From a virus (Duplodnaviria > Caudoviricetes), in IMG/VR virus record IMGVR_UViG_3300037466_003648, positions 1 to 64,000 of that record: 64,000 nucleotides of DNA. The stretch is one strand, 5' to 3'. Numbering within the stretch: position 1 is the stretch's first letter; each line of letters begins with the position of its first letter. Shown here one piece after another: positions 11,263 to 55,084 of the stretch. The notes under the pieces are model-generated. The model made no database searches. It was not told the DNA's origin and saw nothing but the letters and a program-made list of their open reading frames with translations. The translations under genes were made by a program, and so were the position numbers.

Positions 11263-11292
11263 GAGTAGGGTCGTGGTAACATGACCCTACTC
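11263..11292 (+). terminator. 13-bp hairpin with GUAA tetraloop before the tRNA array
   Basis: GAGTAGGGTCGTG-GTAA-CATGACCCTACTC. Confidence 0.55.
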
Positions 11293-11302
11293 TCCTCTTC
11301 AA

Positions 11303-11374
11303 GCCTGGCGAGTCAGTGAGGAACGACATGCGGTTGAAACCCGCAGGGACCACGTTCGAGTCGTGGGCCAGGCA
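11303..11374 (+). tRNA. trnF: tRNA-Phe(GAA), CCA not encoded
   Basis: Acceptor GCCTGGC/GCCAGGC, D-stem GTC/GAC, anticodon arm TGCGG-TTGAAAC-CCGCA, T-arm CCACG-TTCGAGT-CGTGG; G instead of U at position 8. Confidence 0.8.
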
Positions 11375-11380
11375 CTAGAT

Positions 11381-11433
11381 CACTCTGTACCAACTAATCT
11401 CCTTCGGGAGGGCAGGTGGGCTCCTACAGAGTG
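11381..11433 (+). ncRNA. 53-nt long hairpin with cUUCGg apex between tRNAs
   Basis: CACTCTGTA/TACAGAGTG basal stem; TCTCC-TTCG-GGAGG apex. Confidence 0.45.
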
Positions 11434-11445
11434 GTCGACCTTCAT

Positions 11446-11521
11446 GGGTAGGTGGTCCAGTAAGCAGGACGCGAGTGTGAAAAGCTCGGGGCACCGTGTG
11501 CAATTCCGGTCCTACCCACCA
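11446..11521 (+). tRNA. atypical tRNA, anticodon GAA (Phe), with encoded CCA
   Basis: Acceptor GGGTAGG/CCTACCC-A-CCA, D-stem GTCC/GGAC, CGAGT-GTGAAAA-GCTCG; G32 and a non-canonical T-arm (ACCGTGTGCAATTCCGGT). Confidence 0.6.
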
Positions 11522-11524
11522 TTT

Positions 11525-11598
11525 CCTCGGGACGCCGAAGGTCGGCAGGCGCTACCAGAACATGCGCCCTCTAGGTGGTTCGATTCCATCCCCGAGGA
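11525..11598 (+). ncRNA. tRNA-like RNA with an expanded 11-nt anticodon loop
   Basis: Acceptor CCTCGGG/CCCGAGG-A, D-arm GCCG-AAGGT-CGGC, stem GGCGC/GCGCC around TACCAGAACAT, T-arm GGTGG-TTCGATT-CCATC. Confidence 0.65.
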
Positions 11599-11612
11599 CT
11601 TACACAACTCAC

Positions 11613-11783
11613 GGGCGTGTCAGCACCCTATCCGGCGGGTGCACCCGTGTCGTGACCCTAGCAGGATGACACCCTGCGAAGGTCTAAGCTACACTGTCCC
11701 AGGCGGTGTGAAAGCCGTGTTCTGGGGTGTTAACAGCGTAGTGATGGCACGGGAGGTGGCGGGTTCAAATCCCGTCGCGCCCA
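11613..11783 (+). ncRNA. tRNA-like RNA whose anticodon loop is replaced by a ~90-nt two-hairpin domain
   Basis: Acceptor GGGCGTG/CGCGCCC-A, 6-bp D-stem GCACCC/GGGTGC, 10-bp stem CCCGTGTCGT/ATGGCACGGG, variable AGGTG, T-arm GCGGG-TTCAAAT-CCCGT. Confidence 0.7.
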
Positions 11784-11792
11784 CCCCTTTCT

Positions 11793-11941
11793 CTGGAAGT
11801 AGCTCAGCGGTAGAGCACGCGCATTTCGCCCATAGCTCAGTGGTAGAGCGCACCCCAGTTAAGGGTGAGGTCCCCGGTTCGAATCCGGGTGGGCGAGCCA
11901 ACGGCGCGCGGGGCGGTGGTTCAAGTCCATCCTTCCAGACC
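11793..11941 (+). ncRNA. split (outer) tRNA body enclosing tRNA-Asn in its anticodon loop
   Basis: 5' half CTGGAAG-TA-GCTC-AGCGGTA-GAGC-A-CGCGC (11793-11822); 3' half GCGCG-GGGC-GGTGG-TTCAAGT-CCATC-CTTCCAG-A (11906-11939); all stems pair across the insert. Confidence 0.7.
11826..11900 (+). tRNA. trnN: tRNA-Asn(GTT) with encoded CCA; A instead of U at position 33
   Basis: Acceptor TCGCCCA/TGGGCGA-G-CCA, D-arm GCTC-AGTGGTA-GAGC, CACCC-CAGTTAA-GGGTG, T-arm CCCGG-TTCGAAT-CCGGG. Confidence 0.9.
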
Positions 11942-12051
11942 TTTTGAACCTTGGGGGTTGAGAGCCCCGAGCGTGCGGCTGCAGCGTCACGAAGCGGCAA
12001 GTCCGCTGGTCACCGAGATCTCTAGGTGGACCAGCACCAGGACGGCAACGG

Positions 12052-12093
12052 GGTGGGGAGTGCCCAGACGTGGGTCCCCACCGCTTTGTTTTT
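12052..12093 (+). terminator. intrinsic terminator ending the tRNA transcript
   Basis: GGTGGGGA...CCCA-GACG-TGGG-TCCCCACC followed by GCTTTGTTTTT. Confidence 0.55.
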
Positions 12094-40689: not shown

Positions 40690-41418
40690 GTGAGCAAGCC
40701 CATGATCAACCTCAAGAAGACCGAGGTTGAAGACCTTCGCAAGTTCTCCGTCGAACCTGTTCTCACCAACATGAAGGTGCTGGACGTAGTGTGCAACGTC
40801 GTGTTGGTGTTGGACGACTCCGGCTCGATGGAGCACGAGTACGAAGAGGGCCACGTCCAGCTCGTCGCCGAGCGTGCGCTCGCCCTGGCCATGGTCTGGG
40901 ACGCCGACCAGAAGGTCGACATCTTCACCCTCAACCGCGGCTTCATCGGCACGATGTCCCCCGACTCGTTCAAGGGCTGGGTCGGTCGCAATATCCGTGC
41001 ATTCGGCGGGACCCCGTACTCGACCGTCATCCGCCAGATCGTGGAGCGCTACGGTCAAGTCTTCCTAAAGGGCTTCTTCGCCAAGTTGCGCACCCTCTTC
41101 GGCGCCAAGGAAGCTCCCGTACTCCCCACCTACGTCCTCTTCGTGACGGACGGTGACTGTACCGACCAACCCGAAACGACCTCGATGATCGCCCAGCTCA
41201 TTGGCGGTCCCATCTTCATCCAGTTCGTGGGCTTGGGTGAAACCACCTTCTCGTACCTCAAGACCATGGACCGCCGCAACACCAGCTTCTTCATCCTCCC
41301 CTGCGAGGAAGAAGACGCGGTCGTGGACGATGGCTGGCTCTACCAGAACCTCGCCCGCGGCTTCAGCAACTGGCTGAAGAACCGTCAGGGCACGGGCAGT
41401 GTGGTCGGGAAGGACTAA
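40690..41418 (+). CDS. vWA domain protein (TerF/ter-cluster-associated type)
   Basis: VLVLDDSGSM, GGTPY, LFVTDGD, IFIQFVGLG. Confidence 0.8.
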   Translation: MSKPMINLKKTEVEDLRKFSVEPVLTNMKVLDVVCNVVLVLDDSGSMEHEYEEGHVQLVAERALALAMVWDADQKVDIFTLNRGFIGTMSPDSFKGWVGRNIRAFGGTPYSTVIRQIVERYGQVFLKGFFAKLRTLFGAKEAPVLPTYVLFVTDGDCTDQPETTSMIAQLIGGPIFIQFVGLGETTFSYLKTMDRRNTSFFILPCEEEDAVVDDGWLYQNLARGFSNWLKNRQGTGSVVGKD

Positions 41419-42304: not shown

Positions 42305-42583
42305 ATGTCCTACCAACCGCCCCACAAGCGAGGTACCCACAGGTTCGACCGTCCCCGCTGCGTCGCGTGCAACGGTTCCGGTTATGCCGAGTTCCCACGC
42401 GCCGTCGAGCGGGTCGAGGTGATGTTGGGTGACAGTGGTCTCTCCGTCACGCGCACCGTCTACGAGGGCGTGCGTCAGATCGGCACGGGCGCCTACATCA
42501 AGTTCAGCGGCAAGCACGTCGCCGTGAAGAAGGTGGACGGCAAGTGGGTTACCGAAAACCCGGAAGAGGCGGTGGTCAGGTGA
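42305..42583 (+). CDS. hypothetical protein with CVACNGSG motif
   Basis: GCCGAAGGAG RBS. Confidence 0.65.
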
Positions 42584-43206
42584 GTCGCGCGTTCCTGAAC
42601 AACGAGATCTACATCAGCGTCGATGTCGAGACCGACGGCCCCATCCCCGGCCCCAACTCGATGTTGTCGCTGGGCGCCGCCGCGTATCGGATCGAGATCG
42701 TCAATGGCAAACTCGTGCCCGTGCTGCTGGACACCTTCAGCATGAACATCGAGCAGCTGTGGGATGCCAAGCCCGATCCCGAGACCGAAGCCTGGTGGAA
42801 GACCCAACCTGCTGCTTGGGAAGCTTGTCGCAAGGACCCACAGAAGCCTGGTGTCGTCATGAAGCTGTTCAGCCAGTGGGTCGAAGAGACCTCGAAGGAA
42901 GCTAATGCGAAGCCCGTCTTCGTGGGCTACCCTGCGGGCTTCGACTTCCTCTTCGTCTACTGGTACCTGATCCGCTTCGTGGGTAAGAGCCCCTTCTCGT
43001 TCTCCGCGCTGGACGTCAAGACGTTCGCCATGGCCGTGTTGGGCACCGAGTACCGCAACTCGACGAAGCGCAACATGCCCAAGGGATGGTTCCCCAAGGT
43101 CCGCCACAACCACATCGCGGTCGATGATGCCGTGGAGCAGGGCGAGTTGTTCTGCAACATGTTCATCGACAACTACCGCCGCCGTAAGCCCAACACGACC
43201 CTTTAG
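42580..43206 (+). CDS. DEDDh 3'-5' exo(ribo)nuclease (Rv2179c/RNase AS-like)
   Basis: SVDVETDGP (ExoI), AGFDF (ExoII), HIAVDDA (ExoIII). Confidence 0.85.
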
Positions 43207-44626: not shown

Positions 44627-45748
44627 ATGAGCACCGTCCGCACCACCATCGAGCGTCTGGTCAACGTCCGGCCGCACACCAACTCTGACAACCTGAACCT
44701 CGCCATCGTGCGTGGCTGGCAAATGGTCATGAACGACCGCAACGCGGAGAACCCGCGTAAGACCGGCGACCTGGTCGTTTACTTCGAGGCGGGCACCGTG
44801 CTTCCGTTGAAGTGGGCCGAGAAGTTCGAGGTCGTCAACTACCTCTCCAACAAGACGGACATCGAGGGCAACAAGGTCTTGGTGGTCGGCAAGGTCCGCT
44901 TGCGGGGCGAGCCCAGCTTCGGTCTCACGGTTCCCGTCGCCGAGGCGCTGGCCCTGATGGACGAGCCGGACACCGCGGTTCTGTTCGAGGGCGACGACGT
45001 GTCGCACCTCTTCGGCACCAGCAAGTACCGGCCGCCGGTCAAGGCGAGCGCGGGTGACGCCGAGGAGGATCACCCGCACTTCCAGCCCTACACCGACATC
45101 GAGAACCTGCGCAACTTCCCCAACATCATCGAGGAAGGCGAAGAGGTCACCTACCGCGAGAAGCTGCACGGCACGAACTGTCGCGTGGGCTTCGTGCGCT
45201 GTGACGAAGATCCCAACTGCATCGTCCGCATGGCGGGCTCGCGCGAACTGCGGCGCAAGGCGCCCAAGACCGACGACGAGATGGCCGCCAACACCTACTG
45301 GTTCCCGTGGACGCTGGAGTCGGTCAGCTTGATGCTCAGCCACCTGGGTATTCAAGGTAACCAGAGCGCGACGCTGTACGGTGAGGTCTACGGTGGTGGC
45401 GTCCAGAAGGGCTTCGACTACGGCCACAAGCGTCCGCAGTTCCGCGCCTTTGACCTGTCGGTCAACGGCAAGTACCTGGACGATCCCGAGTTCGAGGCGC
45501 TGTGCCAGGAGTTCGGTATCGAGGTGGCGCCGCTCGCGTACCGCGGTCCCCACAACATGGCCAAGCTCAAGGAGCTGGCTGAAGGCAAGACGGCCATCGA
45601 GGGTGCCACGCATATCAGCGAGGGCATCGTCGTAACCCCCACCAAGGAGCGTGTCCACCCGCAGGTGGGTCGCGTGATCCTCAAGTACGTGTCGGATGCC
45701 TACCTCTTCCGCAAGGGCGGGGATGACGACGACACGACCGACGTGTAA
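44627..45748 (+). CDS. ATP-dependent RNA ligase, DRB0094/Rnl2-type
   Basis: N-terminal HTNSDNLNLAIVRGWQ and GDLVVYFE; ligase motifs EKLHGTN (I), YGEVYG (III), FRAFDL (IIIa), EGIVV (IV), ILKYVS (V). Confidence 0.88.
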   Translation: MSTVRTTIERLVNVRPHTNSDNLNLAIVRGWQMVMNDRNAENPRKTGDLVVYFEAGTVLPLKWAEKFEVVNYLSNKTDIEGNKVLVVGKVRLRGEPSFGLTVPVAEALALMDEPDTAVLFEGDDVSHLFGTSKYRPPVKASAGDAEEDHPHFQPYTDIENLRNFPNIIEEGEEVTYREKLHGTNCRVGFVRCDEDPNCIVRMAGSRELRRKAPKTDDEMAANTYWFPWTLESVSLMLSHLGIQGNQSATLYGEVYGGGVQKGFDYGHKRPQFRAFDLSVNGKYLDDPEFEALCQEFGIEVAPLAYRGPHNMAKLKELAEGKTAIEGATHISEGIVVTPTKERVHPQVGRVILKYVSDAYLFRKGGDDDDTTDV

Positions 45749-46734: not shown

Positions 46735-47193
46735 ATGCACACTCAGATCCGCGAACTGGCCGAAGCTCTGCTGAACCGCCGGAATGGTGGTGGCGGTGAA
46801 CTAGATGGCCCCGTGCGTAATCTGCTAGCAGCAATCGCCGAAGAGCACACGGAGTTCGCTGACATCATCTACGAGTACCTGCCGGACATTGTCACCGGTA
46901 CCTACGATCGTCGCTTCGAGCTGGTTGAGATCAAGGAGGGCGACTTGCCGCGGCTAACGGTCGCCACCAACCGCATTTCGCTCAAGATGCCCAAGGGGTC
47001 GTCTCAAGCGATGATCGACCATTACACCAGCTTGGCACATACCATTGCTGATCAGGTCGACAACCCGCACACGGTGCGCGGCACGTTCATCGGAACAGGT
47101 ATCCGCCTACGCGACGTTAAGAACAAGACGTACGGCCGCTTCGATGAGAACGGTCAGCGCAAGGTGCCCGATGTTCAACCCGACGAGGCGTGA
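46735..47193 (+). CDS. hypothetical protein
   Basis: SD AAGGAG. Confidence 0.65.
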   Translation: MHTQIRELAEALLNRRNGGGGELDGPVRNLLAAIAEEHTEFADIIYEYLPDIVTGTYDRRFELVEIKEGDLPRLTVATNRISLKMPKGSSQAMIDHYTSLAHTIADQVDNPHTVRGTFIGTGIRLRDVKNKTYGRFDENGQRKVPDVQPDEA

Positions 47194-47197
47194 CACG

Positions 47198-47842
47198 ATG
47201 CCGGACCGCATGCAAGACCTGGGGGACCTGCGAGACGCCTGCATGGGTTGTCGCAACTGCGATCTAGCAATTGCTAGAACCAACGTGGTCTTCGCTCGCG
47301 GCAACCCCTACGCACACGCGATGATCGTGGGCGAGGCGCCCGGCGCCGACGAAGACGCCACGGGCAAGCCCTTCGTCGGGCGCGCCGGTCAGCTCCTCGA
47401 CCGGATGTTCAAGTCCGTGGGGCTGGACACCGAGGAGCACTTCTACCTCACTAACACCGTGCGCTGCCGTCCGCCGGGGAACGCCAAGCCCACGCCCGAC
47501 CAAACTGCCGCCTGCAAGTACTGGCTCATCGACCAGATCCATCTGCTGCAGCCGCGCTTCATCGTGGCCGTCGGCGGCGTCGCCACAAGCTGGTTCAAGG
47601 GCGAGGAGGCCAAGATCACGCACCTCCGCGGACGCTGGTTCACCTGGAGCCCGCCGGACAGTTCGCTGGTCATCCCGGTCTTCCCCATCCTGCACCCCGC
47701 GTATCTGCTGCGCCAGAACGACCCACGTTGGGAAGACCCGACATCGCCGCACAGCTTGACCTTCCGGGACATGAAAGCCATCCGTCGTGCCTACCAGAAT
47801 CGCGGGCTCATCAACACCGCCGACCTTCCCGCAGAGGAGTGA
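47198..47842 (+). CDS. uracil-DNA glycosylase, family 4 (Fe-S)
   Basis: CMGCRNC, GEAPG, FVGRAGQLL, CRPPGN, HPAY. Confidence 0.93.
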   Translation: MPDRMQDLGDLRDACMGCRNCDLAIARTNVVFARGNPYAHAMIVGEAPGADEDATGKPFVGRAGQLLDRMFKSVGLDTEEHFYLTNTVRCRPPGNAKPTPDQTAACKYWLIDQIHLLQPRFIVAVGGVATSWFKGEEAKITHLRGRWFTWSPPDSSLVIPVFPILHPAYLLRQNDPRWEDPTSPHSLTFRDMKAIRRAYQNRGLINTADLPAEE

Positions 47843-54418: not shown

Positions 54419-54447
54419 TTGCGATCCTGTACCACATCTGGTACACT
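54419..54447 (+). promoter_or_regulatory. sigma-70-type promoter with extended -10
   Basis: TTGCGA-17 nt (ending TGG)-TACACT. Confidence 0.6.
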
Positions 54448-54490
54448 CCTACCTGCTAAGGAACAACTACGCCGGGGCAAGAGGAGCACC

Positions 54491-55084
54491 ATGACCCAAC
54501 CCATCGAGTCCGAGCTGTACCTGCTCGTCGGCCCCAGTGGTGCCGGTAAGACGTCCGTGATGGACGAGTTGTACCGCGAGGGCACCCTGATCAAGGCGAC
54601 CTCTCACGCCACGCGCCCCATGCGGGAAGGCGAGTCCCAGGGCAACCCGTACCACTTCATCTCGGTGAACGAGTACAAGGGGTTGGATCTCGAAGGCCAG
54701 TTCATCGAGAAGATCGAGTACAACGGCAACCACTACGGCTTCACCCGCGGCGAAGTGCTGAACGCGTTGGAGCGGGGTGACGTTGGTCTGATCGTCGAGG
54801 GTCACGGTGCGGCGCAAATTCGCAAGCTCTTCCCCGGCCGGGTCACCACCATCTTCCTGGACCCGCCACCCCGCGAAGAGCTGGTGCGTCGGATGCGTCA
54901 GCGCAAGAACACCCAGGCGGAGATCGAAGAGCGTCTAGCGCTCATGGTGGACGAGATGAAGTTCGGTCCCGAGGCCGACTACCACGTCGACACCAACGAC
55001 TCGTTCGACCACGTTCTTACCAAGGTGCGCACGATCATCAAGATCACCCGTGCTCGCCGTCAGAACAAGGCGGAGGGTCTGTAA
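54491..55084 (+). CDS. gmk: guanylate kinase
   Basis: GPSGAGKTS P-loop; SHATRPMREGESQGNPYHFIS; YNGNHYG. Confidence 0.9.
   Translation: MTQPIESELYLLVGPSGAGKTSVMDELYREGTLIKATSHATRPMREGESQGNPYHFISVNEYKGLDLEGQFIEKIEYNGNHYGFTRGEVLNALERGDVGLIVEGHGAAQIRKLFPGRVTTIFLDPPPREELVRRMRQRKNTQAEIEERLALMVDEMKFGPEADYHVDTNDSFDHVLTKVRTIIKITRARRQNKAEGL

Follow-up and report, generated by a model that had tools for sequence, protein, structure and literature searches.

A phage operon of six tRNA-framed RNAs, most unable to decode, in which one tRNA lies within the anticodon loop of another

Two ways of splicing a transfer RNA (tRNA) are known, namely, the self-splicing of group I introns, which in bacteria and phages also interrupt anticodon loops, and the endonuclease pathway of archaea and eukaryotes. 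In phage T4, the species 1 and 2 RNAs (rnaC and rnaD), which are stable, do not decode, and have no known function, lie inside a normal tRNA cluster. T4 also mends tRNAs that PrrC has broken in the anticodon loop: Pnkp must heal the 2',3'-cyclic phosphate and 5'-OH ends, and the ATP-dependent RNA ligase Rnl1 does the sealing. The tRNAs of Lak megaphages contain "enigmatic" introns, and one insert, found in a tRNA-Thr(UGU), "itself may encode a tRNA" (Devoto et al. 2019, PMC6784885). In other phages, tRNAs with changes in the anticodon loop escape host tRNases (van den Berg et al. 2023, PMC10264068). Here, we describe a locus at positions 11263-12093 of the first 64,000 nucleotides (nt) of the IMG/VR record IMGVR_UViG_3300037466_003648. 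This stretch is referred to as the window, and the record is a complete phage genome of 205,180 bp with direct terminal repeats. The locus, referred to as the mini-array, contains six tRNA-shaped bodies, b1 to b6, of which b6 is nested in b5.

The statement best supported by our analysis is structural: the mini-array is a dedicated operon of tRNA-framed RNAs, most of which are unable to decode. Its six bodies span 11303-11939 on one strand, the plus strand, which also carries the flanking hairpin and terminator, the ligase gene, and the exonuclease gene described below. The gaps between them are mostly 3 to 14 nt, the exception being a 70-nt structured spacer after b1. Immediately behind the upstream gene's stop codon, the region opens with a 13-bp hairpin (11263-11292) that is capped by a GUAA (GNRA) loop and has a minimum free energy of -24.3 kcal/mol. 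It closes with an intrinsic terminator (12050-12093), composed of a GC-rich hairpin (12050-12082) and then GCUUUGUUUUU, with the T run GCTTTGTTTTT at 12083-12093. The tight same-strand packing from hairpin to terminator supports the operon reading. The original prediction, made from the sequence alone, had placed six tRNA bodies in about 640 nt between these two limits, and all of them are present. It had also claimed that every member has a remodelled anticodon loop. This applies to b2 through b6 but not to b1, which has a normal loop and is unusual elsewhere.

The first two bodies carry the phenylalanine anticodon GAA. b1 (11303-11375) was called by ARAGORN as Phe(GAA) with the normal 7-nt loop UUGAAAC; its D stem has 3 bp, its variable region has 4 nt, and CCA is not encoded. 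It is followed by the spacer (11381-11436), a long hairpin whose closing strands are CACUCUGUA and UACAGAGUG and whose inner stem is capped by UUCG. This spacer is not tRNA-like and reached -28.3 kcal/mol when 11376-11445 was folded. b2 (11446-11521) matches the Rfam tRNA model RF00005 with 43.9 bits, has the loop GUGAAAA with a G at position 32 (G32), and encodes CCA. Its core is abnormal as well: G55 replaces the universal U55, the T stem is bulged, and, in the Rfam alignment, the D loop is altered with part of its GG lost.

In the next two bodies, the anticodon loop has been expanded. b3 (11525-11598) combines four perfect stems and the canonical T loop UUCGAUU with an 11-nt anticodon loop, UACCAGAACAU. 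b4 (11613-11783) is a tRNA frame with a 7-bp acceptor stem, a 6-bp D stem, a canonical T arm, and a 98-nt insert at 11650-11747. In its predicted fold, an anticodon stem of 6 bp is prolonged to 10 bp and runs into a three-way junction with two hairpins. The first has a 5-bp stem and the 7-nt loop AUGACAC, and the apex of the second, U-GUGAAA-GC, is similar to the anticodon stem-loop of b2, U-GUGAAAA-GC. As in engineered tRNA scaffolds, a foreign folded domain thus takes the place of the anticodon loop in b4. Four of the six bodies have GAA in an apical loop (11334-11340, 11476-11482, 11553-11563, and 11708-11713, the last in hairpin 2 of b4). This post hoc observation hints at a Phe-anticodon theme.

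The last two bodies form the nested pair. The 5' half of b5 (11793-11825) consists of an acceptor strand, a D arm, the anticodon-stem strand CGCGC, and the loop bases AUU. It is followed by b6 (11826-11900), a complete tRNA-Asn(GUU) recognized by both ARAGORN and Rfam (63.6 bits), with the loop CAGUUAA, in which A replaces U33 (A33), and an encoded CCA at 11898-11900. The 3' half of b5 (11901-11939) then supplies the loop bases ACGGC, the stem strand GCGCG, the variable region GGGC, a T arm, the other acceptor strand, and discriminator A. Between this last body and the terminator lies a trailer (11943-12049) that is predicted to fold and that varies between strains.

We checked how closely the six bodies keep to the tRNA frame. 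All 91 designated helix positions pair (six as G-U), and the T loops of b1, b3, b4, b5, and b6 are canonical, which argues for selection on shape. Only b6 and b2 passed the Rfam gathering threshold of 29 bits, and b1, b3, b4, and b5 were not reported by RF00005 even at an E value of ≤10. b6 alone scores as a good tRNA; the remaining bodies deviate in loop or core. When parts of the b3 loop or the b4 insert were deleted, ARAGORN made no call in any register. b3 and b4 are therefore tRNA-shaped rather than near-tRNAs. The Rfam search of the b4 insert, the other inserts, and the spacers returned no known RNA family, and a match to tRNA-Sec was far under threshold. A match to YrlA, the bacterial Y RNA (RF02553), was rejected, since it reached 19.9 bits against a threshold of 69 and fused the T arm of b4 with the D arm of b5, an artifact of adjacent tRNAs.

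The phage has little apparent need of these bodies for translation. Its canonical array of about 32 tRNAs, at 83.9-87.8 kb of the phage record and about 72 kb from the mini-array, covers all 20 amino acids, so the mini-array is unnecessary for ordinary decoding. Most canonical tRNA genes lack an encoded CCA. The array includes Phe(GAA) with the loop CUGAAAA, compared to GUGAAAA in b2 and UUGAAAC in b1, and Asn(GUU) with the loop CUGUUAA, compared to CAGUUAA in b6. Recent copying of the mini-array bodies from the canonical array was considered and rejected, given that sequence identity did not exceed 70%, which is the background level. The mini-array itself lies immediately downstream of RNA-polymerase-like phage genes and an orphan gene. 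The phage has a GC content of approximately 62%, and its DNA is present in soil and rhizosphere metagenomes.

The explanation that we tentatively prefer, and regard as nearly as likely to be right as wrong, is that 11263-12093 is a self-contained, cotranscribed operon of six small RNAs that are built on the tRNA frame as a chassis, with the nested pair being released and perhaps sealed by a ligase. The chassis would comprise the acceptor stem, the T arm, and the elbow formed by the D and T arms. Each frame would be recognized by host RNase P and by RNase Z-type 3' processing, yielding separate stable RNAs, and host CCA addition would complete those in which CCA is not encoded. In T4, rnaC and rnaD likewise give rise to stable small non-decoding RNAs through tRNA-like processing signals, as proposed here, but they sit within the normal cluster, whereas the odd RNAs described here form an operon of their own, distant from the normal array. 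At most three of the six bodies could decode, the two deviant GAA (Phe) tRNAs and the A33 tRNA-Asn, all of which duplicate tRNAs of the canonical array. b3 and b4, having no usable anticodon, would instead display other RNA at the site of the anticodon loop. The likeliest purpose may be to supply non-standard tRNA-shaped RNAs in a conflict over tRNAs.

The nested pair is the part of the operon for which a mechanism can be proposed. Its inner member is closed by the 7-bp acceptor stem UCGCCCA/UGGGCGA, followed by discriminator G, and has the T loop UUCGAAU. The junction lies after loop position 3 (nt 34) of b5, whose 5' exon ends with AUU. When 11826-11900 was removed, ARAGORN reported a tRNA in every register tried, and b5 became a complete cloverleaf with four perfect stems. 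Its two halves cofold as a nicked cloverleaf at -29.8 kcal/mol, compared to -6.3 and -9.5 kcal/mol for the halves alone. The position of the interruption is that of group I introns in tRNA anticodon loops; however, the 75- and 98-nt inserts of the mini-array are too short for such introns, match no Rfam intron family, and have no apparent self-splicing fold. The Lak introns are closer in that the anticodon loop of a phage tRNA carries a short insert, far below group I intron size. In the mini-array, by contrast, a full, high-scoring tRNA-Asn with CCA takes the place of a reduced tRNA-like element, the normal array makes the outer body redundant, and removal leaves eight rather than seven loop bases.

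To place b5/b6 among comparable loci, IMG/VR was scanned with two signatures chosen as impossible for ordinary tandem tRNAs, namely, two D arms 8 to 30 nt apart, or two T loops separated by 12 nt, then CCA, and then 14 to 20 nt. Each locus was inspected for a 7-bp acceptor-like closure. The insert was then excised from its first base through CCA, and it was determined whether ARAGORN found a tRNA across the junction. The counts are samples, with totals being lower bounds. Among the T-loop scan matches listed, 61 of 341 loci contained an acceptor-closed insert ending in NCCA, amounting to at least 66 events with insert sizes of 38 to 129 nt. Exact removal of the insert restored a three-base anticodon in 64 of the 66 events listed, with the remaining 2 resembling b5/b6, and the junction followed nt 34, 35, or 36 of the outer tRNA in 60 of the 66.

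The outer tRNAs among the matches listed were Lys UUU (22), Ile UAU (15), Gln UUG (7), Glu UUC (4), Gly UCC (4), Thr UGU (3), and Asn GUU (4), a strong bias toward U34 anticodons plus Asn GUU; the interrupted species are targets of known anticodon nucleases and wobble-modification enzymes. The inner elements retain the acceptor stem and the T arm and mostly lack a usable anticodon arm. They thus behave as tRNA-shaped inserts rather than decoders, which makes the A33 of b6 unsurprising. The pair b5/b6 is therefore an atypical member of a recurrent tRNA-in-tRNA class: it shares the position, the closure, the CCA end, and the outer cloverleaf, but not the restoration of a 7-nt loop. For two nested census elements that were searched against cultured phage records, no counterpart was found. 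Most of the non-nested matches to the T-loop signature had another design, in which a free-standing minihelix of acceptor stem and T arm, also ending with CCA, lies no more than about 15 nt downstream of a complete CCA-ended tRNA (IMG/VR loci L118, L120, L123, L129, L136, and many more).

Cleavage by RNase P gives the RNA upstream of a tRNA a 3'-OH end, and the RNA downstream of the tRNA receives a 5'-phosphate if the 3' cut is endonucleolytic. Release of b6 would therefore leave the halves of b5 with ends that suit an ATP-dependent ligase, with no need for healing. Once the tRNA-Asn had been released, b5 would still be paired as a cloverleaf, with a 3'-OH and a 5'-phosphate facing each other at a nick in its loop. 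The phage encodes a candidate for sealing such a nick. As the original prediction had it, a DRB0094-type RNA ligase begins at 44627. The protein (44627-45748) has the Rnl5 (DraRnl/NgrRnl, DRB0094-type) architecture, with a PF21189 oligonucleotide-binding (OB) domain at residues 6 to 104 and PF09414 at residues 172 to 355, and its best solved relative is NgrRnl of Naegleria (5cot_A; E value, 4.7e-9; residues 7 to 210). It gave the single PF09414 match in the genome and is the only RNA ligase of the phage. No RtcB, Rnl1, CCA-adding enzyme, or Pnkp-type kinase was detected in the phage genome; its sole AAA_33 match, a weak P-loop hit, is a guanylate kinase, and the neighbors of the ligase contain no healing domains.

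Comparison with T4 is instructive at this point. In both cases, a phage ATP-dependent RNA ligase would act on a tRNA broken in the anticodon loop, although in the mini-array this is a proposal. In contrast to T4, neither a Pnkp-type kinase nor Rnl1 is detectable in this phage, its ligase is of the Rnl5 type, and the break would come from tRNA processing enzymes rather than from a defense nuclease. Because an end-healing kinase, Rnl1, and RtcB are lacking, sealing of 3'-OH/5'-phosphate ends fits better than repair in the manner of T4. An Rnl5-type ligase could seal the b5 nick without end healing. Judged from its domains, the lone ligase would have the right chemistry for resealing b5, perhaps with a substrate preference that is not ideal. 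A link between the array and the ligase is thus plausible, through the nested pair only and as splicing rather than repair. Of the array-ligase module that had originally been postulated, this link is the part that finds support; its repair function is weakened by the absence of healing enzymes, and the exonuclease assigned to it appears unconnected.

That exonuclease is in the window, at 42544-43206 (the original prediction gave 42580), and is a DEDD-type 3'-5' enzyme of the Rv2179c-like family PF16473 (7t2s; E value, 7e-21). Its PHROG matches are annotated as "exonuclease" and "DNA polymerase exonuclease subunit." It looks DNA related and shows no link to the array, so that its membership in the system is doubtful. 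The surroundings of the ligase further include a vWA-TerF-like protein (PF10138), a protein of the uracil-DNA glycosylase superfamily, and the guanylate kinase (40690-41418, 47045-47842, and 54419-55084).

The association between nested inserts and ligases was examined in members of the class instead of relatives of the phage, using records at least 79% complete, with records from the same scans that contain no nested insert serving as controls. A match to PF09414 or PF09511 with an E value of ≤1e-5 was found in 25 of 29 nested-insert records and in 14 of 25 controls; 21 and 11, respectively, were over the curated cutoff. The corresponding Fisher P values for enrichment of the Rnl1 and Rnl2/5 families were 0.017 for any match and 0.052 for matches over the cutoff. 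Median genome sizes were 170 kb in the nested set and 179 kb in the controls. A first batch of records had yielded ligases in 14 of 14, and the second batch lowered the total to 25 of 29. RtcB, which was counted in the first batch only, was present in 0 of 14 nested records and 2 of 12 controls. Four loci from the D-arm scan are on fragmentary records and are uninformative for ligase presence. The enrichment of ATP-dependent ligases with nested inserts is real but modest.

The nested pair can be read as a working two-for-one gene, for which no splicing endonuclease and no ribozyme would be required and in which RNase P would cut at 11825/11826, a second cut would follow the inner CCA, and the Rnl5-type ligase would reseal b5, with the neighboring bodies following the same logic. 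We consider this more specific proposal possible but doubtful. We know of no protein-only tRNA splicing of this kind in bacteria or their viruses.

Several observations weigh against the explanation that we prefer. Exact excision of b6 leaves b5 with the 8-nt loop AUUACGGC instead of the canonical 7 nt; a 7-nt loop would require the cut to be shifted by one base to either side, giving Arg ACG or UCG. The outer body may thus be decayed or may never be resealed. A clean insertion into an intact gene would look equally restorable, so that restoration by itself does not prove splicing. Rnl5 enzymes (DraRnl and NgrRnl) are sealers of duplex nicks, while the unpaired anticodon loop is the specialty of Rnl1. 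The ligase is located 33 kb from the array, among genes of DNA and nucleotide metabolism. Four complete genomes lack both ligase families despite carrying nested inserts, and the modest enrichment is uncorrected for relatedness, several of the records being akin. No relatives were found when phage GenBank entries were searched by DNA, IMG/VR with the upstream and RNA-polymerase-like proteins, and a collection of 5.8 billion proteins with the upstream protein. The sole match was the phage itself, which confines the evidence of conservation to the strain level. At that level, a single-nucleotide polymorphism (SNP), 11676 G>A, disrupts one pair in hairpin 1 of b4.

An 8-nt loop could in principle have a use. 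If b5 were resealed with the anticodon UACG, it could read the quadruplet CGUA at a programmed +1 frameshift site, and ARAGORN indeed reads the loop of the excised b5 as the anticodon "tacg." The genome, however, contains one candidate +1 junction with CGTA, compared to a mean of 3.9 per quadruplet and with 201 of 244 quadruplets having at least one, and the phage has no PTH2 gene. Quadruplet decoding by b5 is accordingly disfavored and, in our view, very improbable.

Strain variation was assessed with DNA contigs from four soil runs, in which near-identical strains were recovered. These strains retain all six bodies, with three listed SNPs overall, two of which are inside bodies: that in b4 and one at 11539, within the D loop of b3. 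It should be noted that 11808-11903 was swamped by foreign tRNA-Asn contigs, so that up to three further strain differences could be hidden there. In runs X5 and X6, 11944-12083 (140 nt) is swapped for about 114 nt of unrelated sequence, and this variant trailer ends with a different GC-rich hairpin ahead of the same T run.

These data bear on whether the mini-array has any function. It could be a graveyard of relics, in which old duplicates and tRNA genes disrupted by insertions are no longer needed and have survived because they are harmless. Such decay would explain the complete redundancy with the canonical array, the failure of b1 with the Rfam model, the loss of U55 and part of the D-loop GG from b2, and the lack of a tRNA call for b3 and b4 even with trimmed loops. 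It would also account for the pair broken by the SNP in b4 and for the 8-nt loop of b5, for which no partner +1 frameshift site that would give it a use was found. Decay should, however, strike stems as often as loops, whereas the helices contain 0 mismatches in 91 positions and the T loops are canonical in five of the six bodies. Moreover, the region has its own terminator, whose function was retained in the strain with the replaced hairpin, and phage genomes are under pressure to shed useless DNA. We therefore regard decay without function as quite unlikely and continue to prefer an operon of RNAs built on the tRNA chassis.

A purpose in counterdefense against host anticodon nucleases, as was originally proposed, is a rival to our reading. 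Here, b2 (G32) and b6 (A33) would be cleavage-resistant Phe and Asn tRNAs, b3 to b5 would be decoys for nucleases or sensors, and the ligase would repair cut tRNAs. Such a role has precedents: besides the tRNase-evading tRNAs mentioned above, infection can be rescued from the effectors of retrons and PARIS by tRNAs of phages (PMC11555353 and PMC12409363). The Phe and Asn duplicates of the mini-array differ from the canonical copies exactly in the loop, GAA recurs in the apical loops of b1 to b4, and the surface formed by acceptor stem, T arm, and elbow, which is read by many tRNA-binding proteins, is kept in every body. The array is 11 kb from the genome end, beside phage RNA polymerase genes, a position that would suit early expression.

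The repair component of this proposal is weakened. In the absence of a healing kinase or phosphatase, Rnl1, and RtcB, ends of the kind left by PrrC or colicins (2',3'-cyclic phosphate and 5'-OH) would be irreparable, and the ligase could at best mend 3'-OH/5'-phosphate breaks, for example, those made by metal-dependent nucleases. The ATP-dependent ligases that jumbo phages use in repair are normally accompanied by healing kinases or phosphoesterases (Iyer et al., PMC7824862). Both the ligase and the exonuclease are distant from the array, and the latter looks DNA related. As for the bodies themselves, A33 is explained equally well by relaxed constraint on an inner, intron-like tRNA, the core of b2 is abnormal in addition to its loop, and the recurrence of GAA was noticed post hoc. 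The tRNase-evading tRNAs are likewise extra copies that differ in the anticodon loop, as do b2 and b6. They are otherwise normal decoders, changed at known nuclease sites of a known host, whereas in the mini-array the core of b2 is abnormal and b6 is nested in another tRNA. Taken as a whole, the counterdefense module appears unlikely, although somewhat less so than a collection of relics.

If the two-for-one proposal is correct, phages would possess a third way of tRNA splicing, one that relies on nothing but RNase P, 3' processing, and an RNA ligase, and phage RNA ligases would gain a housekeeping role beyond the repair of damage inflicted by defense systems. The other bodies of the operon add to a growing case for phages building non-decoding small RNAs on the tRNA frame. 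Candidate targets of such RNAs include tRNA-cutting defenses, modification enzymes, and sensors of uncharged tRNA. With a deviant decoder, an expanded loop, a scaffolded domain, and a tRNA within a tRNA in 640 nt, all of which are absent from the normal array, the mini-array also offers a compact test bed.

The canonical array has irregularities of its own. At 85320-85398 of the phage record, a CCA-ended tRNA frame has its anticodon arm reduced to a GCG/GGAA/CGC mini-hairpin, and at 86272-86426, a 5' part resembling tRNA-Ile(GAU) is followed by a stem-loop insert of about 45 nt and an aberrant T arm. A small open reading frame (approximately 86105-86260) occupies the same gap in the array as these odd tRNA frames. 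In the ARAGORN register, C33 instead of U33 was observed in canonical Glu(UUC), with the loop CCUUCAU (85626-85701), and in Ser(GGA), with the loop UCGGAAG (87698-87783). Deviation from U33 is therefore seen outside the mini-array as well.

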